A stretch of DNA of 64,000 bases from positions 137,889-201,888 of the forward strand of contig JAGNJD010000001.1 in NCBI GenBank assembly GCA_018000835.1. The letters run 5' to 3'. How positions within the stretch are numbered: position 1 is the stretch's first letter; every line of letters starts with the position of its first letter. Positions 9,742 through 55,090 of the stretch are shown here, piece after piece. The notes under the pieces were generated by a model. That model ran no database searches. It was given only the letters and a program-made list of their open reading frames with translations, and had not been told where the DNA came from. Made by a program: the position numbers and the translations under genes. Source of the stretch: Candidatus Goldiibacteriota bacterium (GTDB lineage: Bacteria > Oederibacteriota > PGYV01 > DSYL01).

Positions 9742-9998
9742 TTTTGCCCTCCTATTAACCCAAGAATTATATTATCATTAAAACACACTTAATAATATAT
9801 ATAATACGGTGGCCCCGTTTGTCAAGACCGATTTTTCCAGAATTTAAGGTGGATACCAAGCTAACGGAAGCAACCTCCTTTCTCATCGGATTTTTGTAAC
9901 TTGACCGCCTGAAATTTCTCTCTAGGATGTCTTCTGTTGCGACTTCTTGAATCAGGTAAGGGGCCAGCACCCCGGACTTTTTCTCTAACTGCGGCATC

Positions 9999-10846
9999 TC
10001 AGGCAGCATTCTTTGCCTGCCTCTTGGCTTTGACTGCTGCGCCAAAATAAACTTCTGCCGGAGTACGATAATCAAGAGCCTGATGCAAGCGGATATTGTT
10101 ATGAATTTTGAAATACTTTTTAAGCCCGGACTCGTATTCAAACATTGTTTCGTACCCCTTTGGATAAACGTCATCATACTTTACACTCCGCCACAGCCTC
10201 TCTACAATGATGTTGTCGTGAGATCTGCCCTTACCATCCATGCTAATCTTTATCTTCTTGCCTTCAAGTATGTCAGTAAACGTTTTGTCCGTGAACTGAG
10301 AGCCCTGATCCGTGTTGAAATATTCCGGCTTGCCGTGTTTGTCAAGCGATTCCAGCAAAGCTGCCTTGCAGAAACTGCTGTCGAGGCTGTAAGACAAAAC
10401 ATACCTGCTGTGCCAGTCCACTATCGCCACAAGATACGCATATCCACGCCTAAGGCGTATGTACGTAATATCTGCTGCCCAAACCACGTTAGAACGCTTT
10501 ATTTTCAACCCTTTTAGCAGATACGGGTACTTCTTGTGCACCTTATTCGGAATACTTAGCCTTTTTTTCGGGCATATTGCCTCTATTCCCATGATTTTCA
10601 TCATACTGCAGGTTTTTTGCGTCCTATTTTTATCCCGTGCAGTTTATACAACGCCTTGGATATCTTTCTGGCTCCGTAGAACGGGCATTCTGTGTATATT
10701 TCGTCTATCCTGTCAAGGATCACTTTATCTAACTCTTTCATCGGCCGTTTTTCATAGTACAGCACCGATTTACATACTCCCAGCAGTTTGCATTGCCTGC
10801 TTATGCTGAAATTCTTGTCGTATGGGTCAACAAACATCCTCCTCAC
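9999..10846 (-). pseudogene. IS3-family transposase OrfB (integrase/rve core), split by a 1-nt frameshift in an A6/T6 run.
   Basis: Two ORFs are in different frames: 10601-10846 (MRRMFVDPYDKNFSISRQCKLLGV...HGIKIGRKKPAV*) and 9999-10604 (MMKIMGIEAICPKKR...DDE core). Inserting one A in the homopolymer (plus strand 10613-10618) restores ...GRKKTCSMMKIMGIEAI... Confidence 0.6.
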
Positions 10847-11130
10847 AACAGGTTCAACTTTTTTAAATTTTTTTTTAACCAGTTTATCTCCAGATCCTTC
10901 TCGCCGATCAGCCTCAGATACTCATCTTCTCGCGATTCCCGTTCTTTTTCTTCCTTGTTGTTCGGTTTCGCAAACAAACTCGCTGCGTTCAGAAGTAAAT
11001 GTTTCTTCCATTCCGTCACTTTATTCGGATGAACTCCGTATTTCGCCGCAACCTCGCTGATTCTTACGCCTTCCCGTGATGCTTCAAGTGCTACCTTTGC
11101 CTTAAAACTCTCCTCATAACGTTTTCACAT
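10843..11130 (-). pseudogene. IS3-family transposase OrfA; the initiator ATG is followed directly by an in-frame TGA.
   Basis: Minus-strand translation after the stop reads KRYEESFKAKVALEASREGVRISEVAAKYGVHPNKVTEWKKHL...LKKNLKKLNLL*, typical of IS3 OrfA. An AGGAGG RBS precedes ATG-TGA at 11130-11125, so codon 2 is a stop. Confidence 0.55.
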
Positions 11131-11191
11131 GATGAACCTCCTGGGTTTCTCTAATTTTACTACAGCAAATCCACCTTAAAAACCGAAAAAA

Positions 11192-11692
11192 TCAGTCCGA
11201 AAAACCTAGGCCATTATACCCATCGACCAGGGCATACTGCTTAAAAATTGAGACCTCAAAAAAACGCTTTGCCTTCTCCACAAACTTCTTAAACACAATA
11301 CTGAACCTCAAACGTATGCCAAGTTCTACGCTATTAACCGCCTTTAATATCTGTTTGTTCTCGCTTTCAGAATCTTCCGCACTTTGTGAATACGCCTTGC
11401 TGTACAACGGCGTCAACTCTTCGCCTTTTACTTCCGCCCCGATGACTTCGCATATCCAGTATCCATTCACAATCTCTTTTCTTGAACCATCATACACCCT
11501 GTCCATATTTTCCATTTTTTTCGCAAAATCTTTCCTTATATCGCTCAAATCTAACGCATGCACCGTATCTTTTTTTATCCTTCGGACTCCTTTTTCAAGC
11601 AACCGCATATTCAGTTTGTCTGTCAGATCTTCTCTTGCTAATTGATGCGTCAGCCGTATTTCCGTCTTTATCAGTTTTATTTTTTCACACAA
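11192..11692 (-). CDS. Hypothetical protein whose 3' end is truncated by the IS3 insertion.
   Basis: The 166-aa ORF terminates at a TGA located inside the IS3 terminal IR (11192-11194). No domain recognised. Confidence 0.3.
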   Translation of the reverse strand: MCEKIKLIKTEIRLTHQLAREDLTDKLNMRLLEKGVRRIKKDTVHALDLSDIRKDFAKKMENMDRVYDGSRKEIVNGYWICEVIGAEVKGEELTPLYSKAYSQSAEDSESENKQILKAVNSVELGIRLRFSIVFKKFVEKAKRFFEVSIFKQYALVDGYNGLGFSD

Positions 11693-11992
11693 ATTCCTGG
11701 ATACTTCTTATATCTTTATATCGCGCGTCGCCTGTATCCCATATATCATCTGCCTAAAAAATTTCTTCCTTGGCATTGTTAATACTTTGCTTATCTCTAT
11801 TATGAATTTTTCAATTCGCTCTTTTATTTCTTCCAAAATTTTGCTATTATTTTCATCGGGATTCCTCCTTTTGGGGAAAACTCTTTTCCCTCTTTTTTTC
11901 GTTAAAAACAGTATACAAAATTGGAATCCCTTTTTTAATCCTTATTTTTGTTTTCTTCTTATTTGATAAGCCTTTTCTGGATTTTGAATTAA

Positions 11993-12515: not shown

Positions 12516-12783
12516 TTAATCAGGGAGTGAATAAAACACATCATCTGCACCATTATTTGTAAAATCTTCCAGGTTTGAACCATCTGTGTTTATTAAGTAT
12601 ATCCCCCGGTTGCTGTCACAGTTGTCTGCAGCCGCTATCTTGCCCTTCACCGCCGCCAACAGGCGTATTTGTTATCGCCGGCTTTGCAGGCGTTTCGTCT
12701 TTTTTGCTGCATCCGATAATCATTATTCCCGTAAATACAAAACAAACCGTTAAAATCAATGCTAATCTTTTCATCGTTCCACC
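12516..12783 (-). pseudogene. Small lipoprotein gene with an internal frameshift.
   Basis: The minus strand reads MKRLALILTVCFVFTGIMIIGCSKKDETPAKPAITNTPVGGGEGQDSGCRQL*, with signal peptide and lipobox Cys. Translation continues in another frame as ...DSNRGIYLINTDGSNLEDFTNNGADDVFYSLPD*. Confidence 0.3.
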
Positions 12784-12822
12784 CTTTTATTTTTAATGAT
12801 ACAACAAACAGTTGGACCCCCT

Positions 12823-13008
12823 CGGGCTAAAACCCGAGGCTCCCACAAAAAATTCAATCAATTTGTCCCGTAGAAATTCTCTTTACGGGATTCGTTGATT
12901 GACCAGGGGACGAGGAATACCAGTGATATTCCGCATCGACCTTGGAACCCTCCTGGCAAAGTAGATAAAACATTTTTAATGTATGCATTCATAAAATATC
13001 TGCGTTTA
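12823..13008 (+). repeat. Intergenic repeat family A, copy 1 (~186 bp); candidate small RNA or MITE-like element.
   Basis: About 87% identical to 22251-22439. Contains local hairpins CCTCGGG-CTAAAA-CCCGAGG and CCCGTA...TACGGG, and GGAATA...TATTCC. Confidence 0.5.
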
Positions 13009-17299: not shown

Positions 17300-17917
17300 G
17301 ATGTACTCCTTATAAATTTTTATATTATTTATTATAACAGAAAAATCAATAGTATGATTATTATTTTTAAGCCTACAAATGACTATAAGATTATTTTTTC
17401 ATATAATTTAGTTTTAATAATAATTAAATGTTATCTAAAATTTTTATTATTATAACATATTAAAATAAAAATTTAAATATTTTTTTAAAAATTTTATGAT
17501 TGGGGCAAATTGCAGGTTTTATTGCACCACACCCAAAATTTCACATGTTTTTTGTAAGAAAACAACTTGTTATATTATTGGATGTTTTATAGTTTAATAT
17601 TACTCTGGGATAACTATTTATCCAATTTTGTATTGCCTATTGCCCTCACTGTCTTTCTCGTTATTTTCCCTATATCTGTTATAAACCTTCTTATCATCCG
17701 GTTCTGGTTCTCGTTCATTCCTTTTTCATATGTTTTTGCAGATTAAACGCCTTCAACAAGATAAATGGAAAAATCCTATGCCTATACTCAATGGCAAATA
17801 TACGATATGAATCAATTGTTCAATGTTAAATTCTTTGGTTCGGAAACACAACATTGTTGACAGGTGTCGACGACGACATAAATTAACGTTTTATTTTTCA
17901 TTAAATTCCATTTATTA

Positions 17918-21465: not shown

Positions 21466-22176
21466 TCACGAATGTGTTTTTCCTAATTTTTTATAGTTTC
21501 TTGGGTATTCATCCGGTGTTTTCCACATCTTTCTAACATAAAAAATGTAAAATAAAATATCATTTATTCTGTAATCAAAGATATTATAATCATTGCAACC
21601 AAATATTTTTATATTATTAAAATTTCTTTTTATCATTTTTAATGTGTTTTTTGACGCAAAATAAAAAATATATCCATCTATCTTTGTAAATGGAAAGGAT
21701 ACTTCCATTGCAATCTCAAAATTTGCAAGTGCTCTGGTTATTACACAATCAAATTTTTCTCTATATTCTGAATTATGAGCTAAGTTCTCACATCTATTAT
21801 TAATAACAGATATATTATCTAATTTTAAGTTATTTTTAATAATATTTAAAAAAAATGACTTTTTTTCATTTGATTCAATTAGTAATACTTTCTTTTTAGA
21901 AATTATTGCCAGTGGTATTCCAGGGAAACCAGCACCAGAACCAATATCCAATATTGTTTCGCATTGTGAAATTGTGTCTATTTTTAATAAATGTAATGAA
22001 TCAATAATATGTCTTTCAATTAATTTATCAACATTTATATCAGATGTTAATTTAAGTAATGAATTATATTTAAGTATTAACGTTATGTAATCGGATATTT
22101 GATTAACTTTTTTTTTATCAATATTTTTAAAATCATATTTATTTAGCATTGAAATTATTCTTTCACATATATTCAT
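21466..22176 (-). CDS. rsmG: 16S rRNA (guanine527-N7)-methyltransferase RsmG (GidB).
   Basis: LLKLTSDINVDKLIERHIIDSLHLL and ILDIGSGAGFPGIPLAI are characteristic GidB motifs; 236 aa. Confidence 0.85.
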   Translation of the reverse strand: MNICERIISMLNKYDFKNIDKKKVNQISDYITLILKYNSLLKLTSDINVDKLIERHIIDSLHLLKIDTISQCETILDIGSGAGFPGIPLAIISKKKVLLIESNEKKSFFLNIIKNNLKLDNISVINNRCENLAHNSEYREKFDCVITRALANFEIAMEVSFPFTKIDGYIFYFASKNTLKMIKRNFNNIKIFGCNDYNIFDYRINDILFYIFYVRKMWKTPDEYPRNYKKLGKTHS

Positions 22177-22250
22177 ATTTACATTATTACAGGAAATTTA
22201 TTATAAAACAATAATAATTTTATATATCAAACAATTTTATTTTATAATAG

Positions 22251-22439
22251 TGGGCCCCCCTCGGGCTAAAGCCAGAGGCTCCCCACAAAAAATTCAATCA
22301 ATTTGTTCCGTAGAAATTTTCTTTACTGGATTTGTTGATTGACCAGGGGACGAGGAATACCGGTTATATTCCCCAGCGAATTTGGAACTATCCTGGCAAA
22401 GTAGATAAAATATTTTTAATGTGTGTGTTCATAAAATAT
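22251..22439 (+). repeat. Intergenic repeat family A, copy 2 (~189 bp); candidate small RNA gene.
   Basis: Near-identical to 12823-13008. A TATAAT -10 hexamer at 22243-22248 sits ~7 nt upstream of the conserved block. A CCCCAAA...TTTGGGG hairpin plus TTTTCT at 22459-22484 sits just downstream. Confidence 0.5.
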
Positions 22440-22458
22440 TTCACTGAGATATTTTATT

Positions 22459-22484
22459 CCCCAAACTGAAATTTGGGGTTTTCT
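22459..22484 (+). terminator. Hairpin CCCCAAACTGAAATTTGGGG followed by TTTTCT; putative intrinsic terminator for a + strand transcript from repeat A copy 2.
   Basis: 7-bp perfect stem, 6-nt loop, U-rich tail. Confidence 0.45.
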
Positions 22485-22490
22485 GAATGA

Positions 22491-22605
22491 TGTTACAATA
22501 AGTAAAAAGAAATATGAGAAAGATATGCATTACTTTGAGGTATGGAAATAACGGAAAATAAAGGGTGTTTGCGACAGCCATACAAAACAGGTAAATAAAA
22601 ACTTG
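22491..22605. repeat. Intergenic repeat family B, copy 1 (~115 bp).
   Basis: Shares the blocks CAATAAGT...GATATGCATTAC...GGAAATAA..GGTGTTTGCG...GCCA.ACA...CAGGTAAA..AAAACTTG with 53945-54058. Confidence 0.45.
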
Positions 22606-22802
22606 TCTTTATTTTGCTTTCAACTGCCATCCGGCACAAGCCATTTGCTGTTTGTTATCAAATCTTTTTATTAAAATAATCTGGTTGTAATGTTTTTCAT
22701 AGGTTTTTAAATGTTATTATAATAAAATATTAAAATTATATTATATTTAAATTTTTGTATATAAAAGATTTTCTTAATTGATTTATTTTAAATGGTAAAT
22801 TA

Positions 22803-24455
22803 TTACCATGAAGTTACTTTTGATTTTTTAGGACCTTTTTTAATCAGTTTTTCAAAAATATTTTTGGGTTTTGGTGTAGGTGATGGAGTTGGTTCCGGCG
22901 TTGGAGTATCTATTGCTTCTGTTTCCGGTGTATTTAAATCATTAATTATTTTGTTTTCTTCTGCTTTTATTAATTTAATTAATATTTCCGCGCGTCTGTT
23001 TGTATACATGTTTTCCGGTGTATCGTTTGGCATAAGAGGTTGCTTGTCAGCATAACCTTCAATTGAAACTCTTTGTTCATTAATACCACTTTTTATTAAA
23101 TATTTACGAACTTCATTTGCTCTATCCAATGATAATTCATAATTAGATGGATATTTTATTGTATGAATTGGTACATTATCGGTATGTCCTTTTATGACAA
23201 TAGGGGATTCATATTTTTTTAAAATTATCAACATTTCATCTAAAATTGGATAAAATTCCTGTTTTATGCTTGCAGCACCAGAGTCAAAATGAATTACAGG
23301 ATAAAATAGTAAATTATCGCCTTGTTTGACTAATTTTACCGATAACTCATTCACGTCATACCGGGAAGGAATTGTTGAAATAACAGGTTCTTGAATTTCT
23401 TCTGTTATTTCCTGAGTTTCAAATATTAAAGGTTCTTCTATTTTTTCCGTTTTTACTTCTTTATTCAATATTATTGGAGTAATTTGTGGTTCAGCCAGAA
23501 TTCTGTAAAGCCAGCTTGGTGAATAACCGCCATCACTTGTAACTTTATTTTTACCTGAACCATCTGCATTCATAATCCATATTTCCGGTTGATATTTATC
23601 AAGAACAAAGTTTGTATATACTATTTTATCATTGCTATGTGAAAACTTTGGGGAGAAACTTTTACCATCATAAGTAATCTGGTCTATTTTCTTACTATCT
23701 AAATTCATAATTAAAATATCAATGTTTTCACCATAATTTAATGCAAATGTTATTTTTTTACCATCATTTGAAAAATCAGGTGAGATTACTTTTTTATCTT
23801 TGTAATTAGTTAATTTTTCTTCATTTGCCATATTTATGTCTTTAATGTATAAATTATATGCATCCATTGATTCAATTTTAACATATACGATTTTATTATC
23901 TTTTGATAAAGATGGTGAAATACAATTATTTGAAAATGTCAATGATTCCTGATTAAAACCATCCTTTGTTATCCTCCATATGTTTTTGTTTCTTGAATAA
24001 ATTATATATGATTCATCGTAACTCCATGCAGGAGTATTGTTTATTTTGAAATTCTGTATGTCGCCTTCAATTTTATCTTCGTCAAAAGTTAATTGTATTG
24101 ATTTATTATTATGTAAATCAGCCAACCATAAATTATAATATTCGTTTTTCTGCACCCAATAAGTTATATACCACCCGGATGGCGATACAGAAGGAAACCA
24201 TTTTGAATTATTATCCTGAAATAATAATTCCTTTCCACTTCCATCTGTATTAATCCAGTAAAGATTTCCATTATAGGTATAAACTATTTTTTCCATGCTT
24301 GGAACAGGAGTATTTGTAGGGGTAGGGGTAGGAGGTGGTGTTTCCTTTTTATTTTTACAATTAGTCAGACTAATCAACGACAAACATAACAAAAAAATAA
24401 TAACTATGGTATGAAATGATTTGTCTTTATTATTCATTATTATTTCTGCTTTCAT
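22803..24455 (-). CDS. Lipoprotein with TolB-like beta-propeller (PD40 repeats) fused to a C-terminal OmpA/Pal-like peptidoglycan-binding domain.
   Basis: Signal peptide with lipobox (LISLTNC), then Pro/Thr-rich linkers. Has repeated ...DG..I.F.S.R.GN..I..... motifs. The C-terminus reads NEVRKYLIKSGINEQRVSIEGYADKQP...NRRAEILI (OmpA_C-like). Confidence 0.6.
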   Translation of the reverse strand: MKAEIIMNNKDKSFHTIVIIFLLCLSLISLTNCKNKKETPPPTPTPTNTPVPSMEKIVYTYNGNLYWINTDGSGKELLFQDNNSKWFPSVSPSGWYITYWVQKNEYYNLWLADLHNNKSIQLTFDEDKIEGDIQNFKINNTPAWSYDESYIIYSRNKNIWRITKDGFNQESLTFSNNCISPSLSKDNKIVYVKIESMDAYNLYIKDINMANEEKLTNYKDKKVISPDFSNDGKKITFALNYGENIDILIMNLDSKKIDQITYDGKSFSPKFSHSNDKIVYTNFVLDKYQPEIWIMNADGSGKNKVTSDGGYSPSWLYRILAEPQITPIILNKEVKTEKIEEPLIFETQEITEEIQEPVISTIPSRYDVNELSVKLVKQGDNLLFYPVIHFDSGAASIKQEFYPILDEMLIILKKYESPIVIKGHTDNVPIHTIKYPSNYELSLDRANEVRKYLIKSGINEQRVSIEGYADKQPLMPNDTPENMYTNRRAEILIKLIKAEENKIINDLNTPETEAIDTPTPEPTPSPTPKPKNIFEKLIKKGPKKSKVTSW

Positions 24456-35146: not shown

Positions 35147-35770
35147 ATGCAAAACGAAAAACTTACCGACATGCAAAGAGATGCATTAAAAGAACTTGGA
35201 AATATTGGTGCAGGAAGCGCGGCAACCGCACTTTCCCAGCTTCTTGGCAAAGACATTAAATTAAACGTTCCTGACGTAACGATCATTCCAATTGAAAAAG
35301 TAAACGAAAAAATAGCAAAACACCAGCAGATAATAGCAGCCGTTTATTTGCGTATCTATGGTGAAATACAGGCAAGAGCACTCCTTATTCTTCCACAGGA
35401 TAAAATATTTTATATAATTGATCTTCTTATGAAAAAAAAACTGGGCACCACGAGAGAATTCGGTGAAAATGAACAATCGGCAATAAAAGAAATCGGTAAC
35501 ATAATTATCTCTTCGTATCTGAATGCTCTTGCAAAATTCATCGGCTTAAATTCAGTTCCTTCCGTACCTGCCCTTGCCGTTGACATGGCAGATGCCATTA
35601 TACAAACCATTTCTGCAGAACTTGCAGAAGTAGGCCCCGATGCTTTTCTTATAGAAAACGAAATGGTAGAAAAAGAAATAGATCTTTCTACCACTCTTTT
35701 AATATTGCCTGAAATGACTTCTATGAAAAAAATATTAAAAGCATTAAATGATACCATAAAAGGTTCATAA
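35147..35770 (+). CDS. cheC: CheC-family CheY-P phosphatase.
   Basis: Two internal repeats carry the E-x2-N motif (ALKELGNIGAGSAATALS and AIKEIGNIIISSYLNALA). Confidence 0.8.
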   Translation: MQNEKLTDMQRDALKELGNIGAGSAATALSQLLGKDIKLNVPDVTIIPIEKVNEKIAKHQQIIAAVYLRIYGEIQARALLILPQDKIFYIIDLLMKKKLGTTREFGENEQSAIKEIGNIIISSYLNALAKFIGLNSVPSVPALAVDMADAIIQTISAELAEVGPDAFLIENEMVEKEIDLSTTLLILPEMTSMKKILKALNDTIKGS

Positions 35771-41437: not shown

Positions 41438-42061
41438 ATGGAAAATAAACAGGAACTAAATCTTACGGAAGCGCAGATTGATGCATTAAAAGAGGTTGGA
41501 AACGTTGGTGCAGGTCACGCTGCAACCGCTCTATCCCAGCTTATAAAGAAAAAAATAATGATAACTGTCCCGGAAGTAAAAATAATAGGGTTGCAGGAAG
41601 TTCCGGGCTTAATAGGCGATTCCCAATCCCTTGTTGCAGGCGTCATTATGAACGTCCTGGGAGACATAACAGCTAAAATACTTTTGCTGCTTACCAGGGA
41701 AAGTGCACTATCCCTTGCCGACATGCTTTTACAAAAAAAGCCCGGCACGACAAAAGTTTTATCCGAGATAGGAAACTCTGCAATAAAGGAAACCGGAAAC
41801 ATTTTATCCGGTGCATACATGAATGCGTTAAACGAATTTCTGGGATTAATACTTCTGCCATCGGTACCGACGCTTGTTTTTGACATCGCAGGCGCGGTTC
41901 TTTCTGCCGTATCCGACGGTTTCGAAGGTGTATCGTCAAAAATATTGTCAATTGAAACGCAATTTTCAGAGACAAACGATAAAATAATAAAAGGCTATTT
42001 GTTGCTCATTCCTGACGTTTTGTCTGTAAGCGTCATTTTAGATGCAATAAAAGTAAAATAA
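41438..42061 (+). CDS. CheC-family phosphatase, paralog 2 (CheC/CheX/FliY-type).
   Basis: IDALKEVGNVGAGHAATALS...AIKETGNILSGAYMNAL. It is ~75% identical to the product of 45747-46373. Confidence 0.75.
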   Translation: MENKQELNLTEAQIDALKEVGNVGAGHAATALSQLIKKKIMITVPEVKIIGLQEVPGLIGDSQSLVAGVIMNVLGDITAKILLLLTRESALSLADMLLQKKPGTTKVLSEIGNSAIKETGNILSGAYMNALNEFLGLILLPSVPTLVFDIAGAVLSAVSDGFEGVSSKILSIETQFSETNDKIIKGYLLLIPDVLSVSVILDAIKVK

Positions 42062-45746: not shown

Positions 45747-46373
45747 ATGGATGAACGGCAGGAACTTACACTCACAGAAGCACAAATAGATGCGTTAAAA
45801 GAAGTAGGCAACATAGGTGCAGGACATGCCGCAACTGCACTCTCACAGATGGTAAACAAAAAAAAGATAATGATAACCGTACCTGAAGTAAAAGTAGTTG
45901 AAAAAGATAAAATTTTTAATTACACTGATGAACCCGATGCCCTGTCAACCGGAGTGATTATGAACGTGCTTGGTGACGTCGTATCAAAAATTATAATGCT
46001 TATAAAAAAAGAAAGTGCGTTATACCTTGCCGACCTGTTACTTAAAAAAAAGCCGGGCACGTCAAAATTACTTACAGAGATGGAAAATTCGGCAGTAAAA
46101 GAGATAGGCAACATTTTATCCGGTGCATACATGAATGCTTTAAATGAATTCCTCGGCCTGATGCTTCTGCCTTCTGTTCCAAACCTTGTTTTTGATACTT
46201 CTGCTGCAATACTTACTGCGGTTTTGGACAGTTTTGAAGACGTATCTTCAAAAATACTTTCCATTGAAACCCAGTTTATTGAGACAAACGAAAAAATTTT
46301 AAAAGGATACCTGCTTTTAATGCCAGACACTTCATCGGTAAAAATAATTCTTGATGCAATAAAGGTAAAATAA
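45747..46373 (+). CDS. CheC-family phosphatase, paralog 3 (near-duplicate of 41438-42061).
   Basis: IDALKEVGNIGAGHAATALS...AVKEIGNILSGAYMNALNEFLGL...ILDAIKVK. Own TATAAT at 45733-45738; no obvious RBS. Confidence 0.75.
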   Translation: MDERQELTLTEAQIDALKEVGNIGAGHAATALSQMVNKKKIMITVPEVKVVEKDKIFNYTDEPDALSTGVIMNVLGDVVSKIIMLIKKESALYLADLLLKKKPGTSKLLTEMENSAVKEIGNILSGAYMNALNEFLGLMLLPSVPNLVFDTSAAILTAVLDSFEDVSSKILSIETQFIETNEKILKGYLLLMPDTSSVKIILDAIKVK

Positions 46374-51689: not shown

Positions 51690-51983
51690 ATTTAATTAAA
51701 GCATTAGATAACAAATGGCAAATGTAATGTGCCGGATTGCAGATGAAAATAAAGGCGGGATTTCGTTTACCTGCTTTGCGTAACTTACGCCTTTCCACCC
51801 TCTTTTAATTATATCCGATCTTTTTCCTGCTTTATTTTATTTATCGTAATAAATTATTCAAAAAATACAATCAATCCTTTTATTCTGATTTATGTTTAAC
51901 TCATCAAAAACTTCATAAAATGCTTTGCTGCCATAAATCAGCGTCATTATTCCTTGCAAATTAAAAAATAAATACGTATAATA

Positions 51984-52003
51984 TTTTGACTTTAACGTCA
52001 AAA
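51984..52003 (+). promoter_or_regulatory. Inverted repeat TTTTGAC-N6-GTCAAAA between a TATAAT (51977-51982) and the thiC RBS; candidate repressor operator.
   Basis: Perfect 7-bp arms; lies at the predicted +1 to RBS region of thiC. Confidence 0.4.
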
Positions 52004-52012
52004 GGAGTATTT

Positions 52013-53299
52013 ATGACGCAGTTGGAAGCAGCAAAAAAGGGAATTATAACAGAGGAAATGAAACAGGTGGCACAGCAGGAAAACATAAACGTAAAAGAAC
52101 TCTGCGGACTTGTTGCAAAAGGTGAAGTGGTAATAACTAAAAACAAAAACCGCTCTTTTAAAAAATTAATTGGTATAGGCAGTAGAATGCGCGTTAAGGT
52201 AAACGCAAACATAGGTTCGTCGCAGGACGTGTCGGACGTTACAAACGAACTTATAAAATTAAAAGCATCTATTGACGTCGGGGCAGATACCGTTATGGAT
52301 TTATCAACCGGCGGGGACATAAAAGCAATTAGAAAGGCAATAATAGAAAAATCATCTGTGCCTATTGGAACCGTGCCCATATATGAAACGGCAGTAAATG
52401 CATTAAATAATAAGAAATCAATAGATAAAATTACGGCAGACGAGTTTTTTGCAACCATTGAAGAACATGCAAAAGAAGGCGTTGATTTTATTACTGTGCA
52501 TTGTGGATTAAACCAAAAATCGCTATCGGCACTAATATCCCAGGGCAGATTGCTTGATATAGTAAGCAGGGGCGGTTCAATGCTCGCAGTATGGATAGTG
52601 AAAAATAACATGGAAAACCCGCTTTATGCTGATTTTGACCGGCTGCTTCAGATTGCATATGAATATGATTTAACGTTGTCATTGGGAGATGGCATGAGGC
52701 CCGGTTGTCTTGCCGATGCAACCGATAGGGCGCAGATACAGGAATTAATAACGCTGGGCGAACTTGCAAAAAGGGCCTATGAAAAAAACGTTCAGGTAAT
52801 GATAGAGGGACCCGGCCACGTTCCCCTAAACGAAATTGAGGCAAACATAAAATTACAAAAAAGTTTATGTAAAAATGCACCTTTTTACGTGCTTGGGCCT
52901 ATTGTTACGGACATTGCTCCTGGTTATGACCACATAACGTCTGCAATAGGAGGTGCTCTTGCTGCATATTTTGGAGCCGATTTTTTATGTTATGTAACTT
53001 CAGCAGAACATCTGAAACTTCCGGACATAGAAGAGGTTAAGGAAGGGGTAATAGTAAGCAGGATTGCAGCACACGCAGCAGACATTGCAAGAGGTTATCC
53101 GGGTGCCAGAGACATTGATGACCAGATGGCTCTTGCAAGAAAAAATCTTGACTGGGAAAAACAAATTTCACTTGCTATAAATCCGGACCTTGCAAAAAAA
53201 TTAAGGGAAAAGTGTCCACCTGAAAATAAAGACGTATGTTCCATGTGCGGGGAATTCTGTGCCATAAAAGAACTAAAAAACGTTATAAATAAAATCTAA
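52013..53299 (+). CDS. thiC: Phosphomethylpyrimidine synthase ThiC.
   Basis: MTQLEAAKKGIITEEMK...MRVKVNANIGSS...DTVMDLSTGG... and the C-terminal CSMCGEFCA Fe-S motif. Start placed at ATG 52013 with a GGAG RBS, not the longer ORF. Confidence 0.9.
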   Translation: MTQLEAAKKGIITEEMKQVAQQENINVKELCGLVAKGEVVITKNKNRSFKKLIGIGSRMRVKVNANIGSSQDVSDVTNELIKLKASIDVGADTVMDLSTGGDIKAIRKAIIEKSSVPIGTVPIYETAVNALNNKKSIDKITADEFFATIEEHAKEGVDFITVHCGLNQKSLSALISQGRLLDIVSRGGSMLAVWIVKNNMENPLYADFDRLLQIAYEYDLTLSLGDGMRPGCLADATDRAQIQELITLGELAKRAYEKNVQVMIEGPGHVPLNEIEANIKLQKSLCKNAPFYVLGPIVTDIAPGYDHITSAIGGALAAYFGADFLCYVTSAEHLKLPDIEEVKEGVIVSRIAAHAADIARGYPGARDIDDQMALARKNLDWEKQISLAINPDLAKKLREKCPPENKDVCSMCGEFCAIKELKNVINKI

Positions 53300-53709
53300 T
53301 TTTTATAAATAAGTGATATTGAAATTCCAGCGGCGACATAACTTACAAGCCCCTGTATAATCCACGATACAAGTAAATCCATCGTAAATTTTCCAATGAC
53401 TATCATTGTAATAAGTGGCTGGTGGACTATTATCAGCCATACGATAAATCCCCAGAAAATGCCTTTAAAAATATTTCCGCCAGGTAGTCCGGTATAAATG
53501 ATTGAATAAAAAATAGACATTATTATTCCGGTTCCAGCCGTAATTATCAAAAGTTTATAAAACCATTTCATTGAAATTTTTTCCCTAAAAATGTGACTTA
53601 ATGATGGGTCAGAAATATGTCCGGTATAATTATAAACAATGCTTGAAACGATAAAAAGAATCATTCCTGCTACAATTCCTGAAATTATTATTTTAAATAA
53701 TTTTTCCAT
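53296..53709 (-). CDS. Small integral membrane protein (4 TM), function unknown.
   Basis: Hydropathy only. Confidence 0.35.
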   Translation of the reverse strand: MEKLFKIIISGIVAGMILFIVSSIVYNYTGHISDPSLSHIFREKISMKWFYKLLIITAGTGIIMSIFYSIIYTGLPGGNIFKGIFWGFIVWLIIVHQPLITMIVIGKFTMDLLVSWIIQGLVSYVAAGISISLIYKN

Positions 53710-53944
53710 AAATACCTCCTTTGTTTTTATATTATTATATCAAAATCTTTTATAAAGTAAATAAAAATGATTCCATTACGTAAATTACGATTAAACCGGG
53801 ATGGGGCATATACTGCACTCCTGTCCGAAAAAAATATAGATTTCATATAATTACTTTCAAATTATATGCTTTTATGAAATTTTTAATTGTGCAGGCATTA
53901 ATTATTAATTAAAATGGAAGGTTGATTGTATTTTTTGAGTAATT

Positions 53945-54058
53945 CATTGCAATAAGTTACAGGAAAAAGCAGAAGGATATGCATTACGGCAAGGCACGGG
54001 AATAATGGAAATAAGAGGTGTTTGCGTAAGCCACACAGACCAGGTAAACGAAAACTTG
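53945..54058. repeat. Intergenic repeat family B, copy 2.
   Basis: Blockwise similarity to 22491-22605 (GATATGCATTAC, GGAAATAA, GGTGTTTGCG, CAGGTAAA, AAAACTTG). The flank at 53800-53940 may hold a degenerate remnant of the family-A 3' half. Confidence 0.45.
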
Positions 54059-54197
54059 ATTAATGCAAGTAAACAATTTATAACGAAAAAAATGTAACAA
54101 TCTTTCCATTAAATTAACTGGACAGTAATAATTATACTGCCATGGGTTTTTATGCCATGGCAGTATAACGACAATTTGGATTTAACTCAATTTACTG

Positions 54198-54626: not shown

Positions 54627-55090
54627 ATCAACCACCTCCTTTTTTAATATTGTTGTTTTTTTATTAAGCATAAGGCGTGCCAGGAAAAACAAAAATAAGA
54701 TATGCATTTTTATTTCTTTTGTTAAAATTTGAAACAAGCAGAAGTAAAAAAATGAAACAACATTCATTTATGCGTTTCATAATTATATACAGATATATCA
54801 TTAAAATGCTTAATAAACTTAATGGGAGGATTGTTTCATTTTTTGCAACAAATTTTTTGCTCACTTCAATCAGGTCTTCGTTTACCTGTACTTATCTAAT
54901 AAAATTTAATTTTTAATATTGCAATTTTATTTTTTTATAGTATAATGTGTATAATTAAATATTGGATTTATTAACAATTATGTTAATAATATGTTGATAA
55001 GTTTGTAGATAATATGTTAATAAATAAAAAACTCTTTTATTTATTATATTTTATTGCATATTTAAAATTTTTTATTGTTTATATTGTTTT

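Follow-up and report, generated by a model that had tools for sequence, protein, structure and literature searches.

Family A, an intergenic sequence found in the window analysed here (a stretch of 64,000 nt of Candidatus Goldbacteria DNA), most likely represents one module of a lineage-specific, modular and hairpin-rich non-coding dispersed repeat, of the kind of the MITEs and BOX elements of other bacteria, a reading to which we give a probability of about 0.75. The element is small, has no coding capacity, and occurs in many copies between unrelated flanks, with at least ten insertion contexts besides the two of the window. Its parts (the hairpins P1 and P2b, the 3′ segment, the terminator module T and the related family B) occur independently of one another, which is the modularity typical of BOX elements. 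A first-pass annotation of this DNA had proposed a small-RNA gene and kept a MITE-like element as a fallback, and it is the fallback that the evidence favours: family A is probably an ordinary kind of bacterial repeat and not a conserved small-RNA gene. Judged by its sequence, which has no similarity in Rfam or in plasmid and phage collections, the family lies outside all named families.

The two copies of family A in the window

Both copies were located on the + strand, where the first-pass annotation had placed them, and the features of family A in the window are the following:

12814..13000 (+), copy 1: module A of the young subfamily, truncated at its 3′ side, 95-97% identical to other loci
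12820-12839, 12854-12902 and 12903-12945, hairpins of copy 1: P1, P2 with its inner P2b, and P3 with its inner P3b
22252..22440 (+), copy 2: old, diverged module A, with a G.A mismatch in P1 and a C.U mismatch in P2b
22431..22457 (+), A/U-rich hairpin of 12 bp, ATAAAATATTTC-ACT-GAGATATTTTAT, which joins module A to the terminator in full units
22459..22485 (+), module T: intrinsic terminator, CCCCAAAC-TGAA-ATTTGGGG and then TTTTCTG
22486..22501 (+), right-end segment of the A+T unit, AATGATGTTACAATAA; elsewhere the flanks diverge directly after ...CCAATAA

Copies 1 and 2, with 12814-13000 aligned to 22253-22440, are 89-90% identical over 184-187 nt with a single 1-nt indel (MAFFT, blastn), and their flanks cannot be aligned with each other. 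A 21-mer of the core occurs at two sites in the 64-kb window, which are the two copies, with 0 expected by chance. The element had been described as present twice, which holds within the window but not for the family, whose further insertion contexts lie in near-identical genomes. Copy 1 shows 95-97% identity to six copies found elsewhere (L010, L018, L019, L022, L024 and L025b), which makes it a member of a young and recently spread subfamily, whereas copy 2, 88-91% identical to every other copy, would be an old resident. Copy 1 stops within the 5′ arm of the 12-bp hairpin (...CATAAAATATC/TGCG, the slash marking the break) and lacks the terminator, and no promoter-like or terminator-like site of its own was found nearby on the + strand. 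Copy 2 is a full unit of 22252-22501. Its end had been set at 22439, but the repeat continues from there through the terminator up to 22501.

Anatomy of the full unit

In the aligned copies, the full A+T unit is about 250 nt long: module A with five hairpins is followed by the 12-bp hairpin and an intrinsic terminator, and the right end of the unit is sharp. The 5′ hairpin of the unit is P1 (CCTCGGGC/GCCCGAGG), and it is followed by P2, a long hairpin (TCAATCAA/TTGATTGA) drawn around the optional inner P2b (TCCCGTA/TACGGGA), and by P3 (CCAGGG/CCCTGG), which encloses P3b (GGAATA/TATTCC). Two small A/U hairpins come after P3, the second being that of 12 bp (helix 7), which is 100% paired in the 7 copies carrying it. 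The local hairpins listed by the first-pass annotation are thus genuine features of the alignment, where 95% of the cells pair with the eight helices drawn, as compared to 26-47% when the partners are slid. A K-turn-like motif in P3 (CCAGGG-GAC-GA ... GA-CCCTGG) was also considered and rejected, as two copies (L013 and L025a) have GC for GA, which merely makes the stem longer.

The hairpin and U-tract that had been noticed after copy 2 are real (22459-22485, +) and constitute the sole terminator-like site in the region 21900-22900 and the sole such site in the window. Module T is kept in 9 other copies, with the form CCCCAAAC-TGAA-GTTTGGGG-TTTT in the alignment, and about 20 bases follow it up to ...CCAATAA, where the divergence of the flanks starts. 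As the unit of copy 2 extends through this hairpin to 22501, the terminator belongs to the repeat, and it would act in one direction only, because the opposite strand has no U-tract. The TATAAT hexamer upstream of copy 2 (22243-22248, +) exists as well. However, of the promoter, transcript and terminator that had been proposed together, it is the terminator that stands, since the hexamer lies in a flank peculiar to copy 2. Upstream flanks are otherwise unrelated, with the exception of A(G/A)T, present just before the GGG of the unit in 9 of 9 flanks, and this short motif may itself be part of the element.

Family B and its link to module A

A second intergenic repeat, family B, is about 200 nt long and has four copies in the window, two in each orientation:

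22486..22640 (+), family B unit adjoining copy 2 and overlapping the right-end segment of the A+T unit
53913..54110 (+), complete family B unit with terminal inverted repeats of 37 nt (AATGGAAGGTTGATTGTATTTTTT... / ...AAAAAAATGTAACAATCTTTCCATT)
51728..51874 (-), family B unit upstream of thiC, inverted relative to the two above
54821..54888 (-), partial family B unit: left terminal repeat and ~45 nt, upstream of dnaA

Several observations indicate, at the level of sequence, that A and B belong, as modules, to a single repeat superfamily. The right-end segment of the A+T unit is homologous to the inner terminal repeat of B, whereas the core of the B terminal repeat, CAAAAAATACAATCAA, recurs within module A as the 5′ arm of P2. 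Together with the preceding bases, this arm (CAAAAAATTCAATCAAT; CAAAAAATTCAATCAA(T)) matches the right repeat of B at 15 of 16 and 16 of 17 positions, a score reached by 0-3 of 500 shuffles, so that P2 can be regarded as an inverted pair of the B-type repeat core. A wider similarity between the A and B cores (GCAAAGTAGATAAA vs GCAAAGCAGGTAAA) was not significant and was dropped. In one locus (L013), A+T sits just inside a left terminal repeat, giving a composite of ~370 nt between inverted repeats (16 nt, 88%), and a similar composite is seen by eye in L025, its end repeats being unreported by the repeat finder. The A+T units of the P1 type have two ends unlike each other and no terminal inverted repeats of their own. 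No consistent target duplication was seen on reading the flanks of L013, L025 and the complete B unit at 53913-54110.

When read as reverse complements, all the family B copies of the window point at the next downstream gene (rsmG, the membrane-protein gene 53296-53709, thiC and dnaA). The right repeat of the complete unit contains an outward sigma-70-like promoter on the minus strand, with TTGCAA (53952-53947), a 16-nt spacer and TACAAT (53930-53925). In the case of thiC (51986-53299), the 300-nt spacer upstream of the gene (51690-51985) contains a family B unit and no TPP riboswitch at the Rfam threshold.

Dispersal, modular variation and turnover

A scan of metagenomes with an exact 18-mer gave 18 loci, in 14 of which the element was confirmed by profile search, the other 4 being chance matches. 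Among the 14 element-bearing contigs, 13 come from samples ERZ795050 and Ga0116146, both of which also hold a strain ~99% identical to the window DNA across the 8-kb rsmG region, and one comes from Ga0116192. The count of at least ten additional insertion contexts was obtained after merging contigs with common flanks. Several contigs (L004, L018, L019 and L024) end within the element, as assembled contigs tend to do at multi-copy repeats. Since the copies were picked by an exact 18-mer, diverged copies are under-sampled and the core (GACCAGGGGACGAGGAAT) looks invariant in part because of the search itself; L025a, found by adjacency alone, has three differences within the 18-mer and its surroundings. 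Searches with a 19-mer (GACCAGGGGACGAGGAATA) gave no match in viral contigs and a single one, a chance match inside a Sphingomonadales coding region, in the GTDB representative genomes. The consensus unit had no match in plasmid and phage collections by distant blastn. With nhmmer profiles built from 3 and then 16 copies, no more copies were detected in the window or in L006-L009, except for a remnant in L007.

The copies vary by whole modules. P2b has been deleted exactly in three independent variants (L010; L016/L021; L013/L025a), P1 is swapped for a B-type terminal repeat (AATGGAAGGATTGTTGCATTTTTT) in L013, L020/L024/L026 and L025a, and the 3′ segment of the unit has two alternative forms. 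In L025 a partial copy is followed directly by a full one, in tandem, and in L012 the last ~17 codons and the stop of a radical-SAM gene (1277-1327) derive from the reverse strand of the terminator and right end. Gene order also differs around the repeats. The membrane-protein gene 53296-53709 is preceded by a B unit in the window and by A+T in L016, where the homologous DNA (98.9% identical) starts 15 nt past the end of A+T and a pilT-like gene lies on the other side. In L021 the left side and the unit are as in L016, but a PilZ gene follows, and L020 and L024 share the left flank but have different 3′ segments. Some of these junction differences (L016 vs L021, L020 vs L024) may be assembly chimeras at the repeat; chimeric or not, a copy of the repeat is present at each rearrangement junction.

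The spread of the family could have been achieved by a transposase acting in trans on B-type terminal repeats, by recombination between copies, or by both. No transposase gene bounded by such ends, which would make an autonomous partner, was seen, and those of the IS3-like element (9810-11213) are different. If module A is transcribed on the + strand, the RNA would be a by-product that stops at the terminator instead of a trans-acting regulator.

Orthologous sites and strain divergence

Four near-identical strains (L002-L005, RsmG 98% identical) carry copy 2 at the same place, with an orthologue 95.7% identical. Between the window and L002 the DNA is 99.1% identical over 8.2 kb, but copy 2 and the orthologue of the closest strain differ at 8 of 188 positions (4.3%), against a background of 0.9% over 8.2 kb and of 1.3-1.9% in the adjacent intergenic DNA. 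The terminator segment shows no differences over 45 positions in the same comparison. The changes in copy 2 are unique to one strain or the other, with no shift toward the family consensus.

In more distant relatives the site looks different. The 191 nt upstream of rsmG in L006 (RsmG 80%) contain no element: homology to the window flank stops at ATAATAG, 3 nt short of the position of the element, and the ~116 nt beyond are unrelated to module A. There is no copy at the orthologous site of L008 (RsmG 64%), whose spacer measures only ~90 bp. In the case of L007 (RsmG 66%), a 51-nt remnant of P2 occupies the same site in the same orientation. It scores 48 against the family consensus, as compared to 20.1 ± 2.5 in shuffles, and fits the consensus better than it fits copy 2, which shows that a more distant lineage also has this family or a related one. 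An alignment of module A to the spacer of L009 (MAFFT) was no better than shuffles and was discarded.

Of the 75 differences between the window and L002, 9 fall within 124 nt (17683-17806) of the spacer between grpE and the OmpA-like gene. This stretch may be a pseudogene remnant, since the relatives L007 and L008 carry an Rce1-like (CPBP protease) gene at that place, where no long ORF exists in the window.

Gene setting and orientation of the terminator

The window has 33% G+C and includes the dnaA-dnaN region. All the genes neighbouring copies 1 and 2 are encoded on the minus strand, and consequently both copies are antisense to them. In the direction of the genes, the order is a TolB/OmpA-like gene (22803-24455), the family B unit at 22486-22640, copy 2, rsmG, recF, an OmpA-like gene, grpE, dnaJ, fixC, fixX, coaX, copy 1, a truncated lipoprotein gene, transposase debris and the IS3-like element.

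The ORFs flanking the different copies are real genes in most cases. Wherever the genes on both sides of a unit share one direction, its terminator points against them (copy 1, copy 2, L012, L020, L021 and L022), although this count of 6 out of 6 is small, with a one-sided p of ~0.016. Two units in sense orientation follow the end of an upstream gene, 3 nt past the stop codon in L011 and ~90 nt past the ORF in L025. These positions suggest that the terminator would work in cells, and that insertions pointing it along an operon would be removed by selection, leaving those in antisense orientation, as at both copies of the window. Copies pointing the other way, or lying at the end of a gene, would be tolerated. 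The orientation pattern can be seen as a small natural experiment, which suggests that a one-directional terminator can be functional as part of a mobile repeat.

Directly downstream of copy 1, in the direction of the genes, there is a truncated and frameshifted lipoprotein gene (12516-12774, minus strand), whose remnant has a lipobox signal peptide and then, in another frame, a TolB/PD40-like stretch (IYLINTDGSN). Further on, the IS3-family element (9810-11213), with imperfect inverted ends of 45 nt and frameshifted HTH_21 and rve ORFs, is apparently inserted in the remnant of another transposase gene (11192-11870), which places copy 1 at the edge of a decayed region.

Could module A be a small-RNA gene or another kind of element?

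The proposal that copy 2 represents a single small-RNA gene with a transcript of ~200 nt finds no support in the family, whose copies share no promoter, match no Rfam entry and show no covariation. In a broader version, each A+T unit would belong to a multi-copy family of small RNAs and be transcribed on the + strand from near P1 to the terminator, giving a trans-acting RNA of ~230 nt, which we regard as unlikely. Such an origin would fit with a one-directional terminator built into the repeat, with eight hairpins kept at 95% pairing and with the TTTATA-18-TATAAT sequence that ends 3 nt before the first base of the copy 2 unit (22252). A(G/A)T before the GGG of all 9 flanks, accompanied by TAnnnT in 3 of them, points in the same direction, as does the folding of the copy 1 + strand, which beats shuffles (z = -3.96). 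However, the fold of copy 2 is no better than shuffles (z = -1.04), the copies have no pair of -35 and -10 boxes in common, and on the + strand of copy 1 nothing resembles a promoter. Of the 11 copies with a P1, 8 show one or more mismatches in it, copy 2 is evolving 4-5 times faster than the background, and neither L006 nor L008 has a detectable copy at the orthologous site. A selfish repeat also explains better why some copies are truncated, nested or overlap a gene.

At gathering thresholds, a scan of the whole window with Rfam 15 (including HEARO, 6S, tmRNA, SRP, RNase P and riboswitches) gave no match, in agreement with the first-pass annotation, which had recognised neither RNase P, tmRNA, SRP nor 6S RNA in the element. 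Around both copies, relaxed searches at E = 1-10 returned only noise of 10-19 bits. The covariation score equals that of shuffles (0.023 vs 0.023), in a test of low power since the copies are 80-97% alike. Changes on both sides of a helix that keep the pairing are two and isolated (the ACATT/AATGT helix of L013 and the terminator of L020). G.U cells number 14 on the + strand as compared to 11 on the - strand (A.C cells that would be G.U there), so the sequence is silent on which strand, if any, is read as RNA. The stem of P2 persists despite three separate deletions and, together with the 95% pairing and the two changes on both sides, this leaves room for a structural role: the hairpins may serve some such role, either in RNA or in DNA. 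As the terminator is real and part of the repeat, + strand transcription into it stays plausible as well. Taking all the tests together, module A does not behave as a constrained RNA gene. It is quite improbable that A+T is a mobile, self-terminating RNA gene, giving either a ~230-nt RNA from each insertion or a 75-nt RNA driven by sigma-54. If that were true, copy number and the variable 5′ flank would matter biologically, for example for an orphan guide-type RNA of a transposon nuclease encoded elsewhere, or for a multi-copy regulator in a candidate phylum without described small RNAs.

Three other origins can be considered for the repeat. The idea of a portable cis-regulatory cassette, in which the core would be a sigma-54-type promoter (TGGAAC-N5-TGGCA) and P2 the site of its activator, appears very unlikely. 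Its product would be an RNA of ~75 nt, made up of the 12-bp hairpin and the terminator, to which the Qrr small RNAs of Vibrio offer an analogy. The motif lies in the core of all the copies and, apart from the two of the window, occurs only once elsewhere in the 64 kb, with GG and GC at the canonical offset of 12 nt and 9 of 12 consensus positions matching. GGCAAAG is invariant in 16 of 16 copies, the 5-nt spacer occurs in eight forms, and the inverted repeat of P2 lies ~65-115 nt upstream of the predicted start. On the other hand, variation extends across the whole range of columns 125-146, beyond the spacer, the deletions of P2b alter by 29 nt the distance to the putative activator site, the GAFTGA signature of the activators is absent from all the fetched DNA, and the motif was found after several motif types were tried. 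Two positions that are well conserved in the sigma-54 consensus are also wrong here (C at -23 and T at -14), which counts against this promoter. Likewise highly doubtful is an IS200/IS605-derived palindrome-associated element, which the first-pass annotation had offered as a variant of the fallback, or an orphan omega-RNA, the guide-type RNA of a transposon-encoded nuclease; the repeat would in this case be mobilised as single-stranded DNA through hairpins near its ends. Hairpins do exist near both ends (P1 at ~7 nt from the left and the terminator at ~23 nt from the right), the P1-bearing units have neither terminal inverted repeats nor a visible target duplication, and the short A(G/A)T motif is conserved just outside the left end. 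Yet P1 (CCTCGGGC/GCCCGAGG) and T (CCCCAAAC/GTTTGGGG) are unrelated in sequence, and the related module B, the core of which sits in A, bears genuine terminal inverted repeats. Genes for a Y1 transposase, TnpB or IscB were recognised neither among the ORFs of the window (by eye, with nine of them scanned against Pfam) nor beside any of the 14 copies, HEARO and the IS605-associated families of Rfam gave no match even at E = 10, and a 3′ guide is impossible because the terminator precedes the right boundary.

The fragments of a decayed protein-coding gene, which the first-pass annotation had named as the finding that would speak against it, are not what is seen in these copies, and such an origin is extremely improbable. 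One + frame is open for ~78 codons through the consensus unit, and the ORF is found in several loci, but its translation has no Pfam match. Within this frame, copy 2 departs from the consensus by S>G, D>Y, P>I, P>Y, T>I, A>V and L>F, so that most changes alter the amino acid. Moreover, the 29-nt deletions of P2b and the alternative 3′ segments shift the frame, and there is no conserved start codon or ribosome-binding site.

Kinship with known repeats

The dispersed modular repeat proposed here has its closest parallels among the small repeats of other bacteria. The Correia elements of Neisseria and other bacterial MITEs are, like family A, non-autonomous and intergenic, of ~100-400 bp, and able to form hairpins. 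Such elements can extend into the ends of genes, bring promoters or terminators with them and be involved in rearrangements. Correia elements have clear terminal inverted repeats of 26 nt and a TA duplication, neither of which was found for the P1-bearing A+T units. The bcr1 repeats of the Bacillus cereus group, dispersed, ~155 nt long, transcribed and with predicted stable folds, stand at the borderline between MITEs and small RNAs; they have no sequence relation to family A, and differ by their defined target duplication (TTTAT). To our knowledge, no small interspersed repeats have been described from this candidate phylum. What is new here is the family itself, whereas this kind of element is already well known in other bacteria.

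Like family A, the BOX elements of Streptococcus pneumoniae (boxA, boxB and boxC) are short intergenic sequences without coding function, present in many copies and assembled from modules whose combinations and sizes vary; they also fold strongly, contain an accidental open frame and are confined to one species and its close relatives (PMC3049150). There is no sequence similarity between the two, the modules of family A are single hairpins plus a terminator, and terminal inverted repeats are found here on the B module and the composites but not on every unit. Another pneumococcal repeat, SPRITE, is also dispersed and resembles an intrinsic terminator, and its placement suggests selection against the disruption of transcription (PMC3049150). 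SPRITE is essentially a terminator-like hairpin alone, and it is enriched 3′ of genes, in sense orientation, whereas the terminator of family A forms a single module within a unit of 250 nt and mostly opposes the neighbouring genes.

The practical value of these repeats is modest. Families A and B account for several of the long spacers between genes in this Goldbacteria genome, mark differences in gene order between close strains, and break or mis-join metagenome assemblies. For annotation, both families should be masked, and neither small RNAs nor short ORFs should be called within them.

In L022, at ~1120-1390, two tandem units of ~100 nt of another repeat (…CCCCTTTGGAAAAGGGGGATGAAGGGGGATTTGAT…), each with a G/C-rich palindrome, adjoin the family A copy. 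In the window, the chemotaxis cluster contains three paralogous genes of ~207 aa (35147-35770, 41438-42061 and 45747-46373), and it is their similarity that the repeat finder registers as the long direct repeats D1 and D4.
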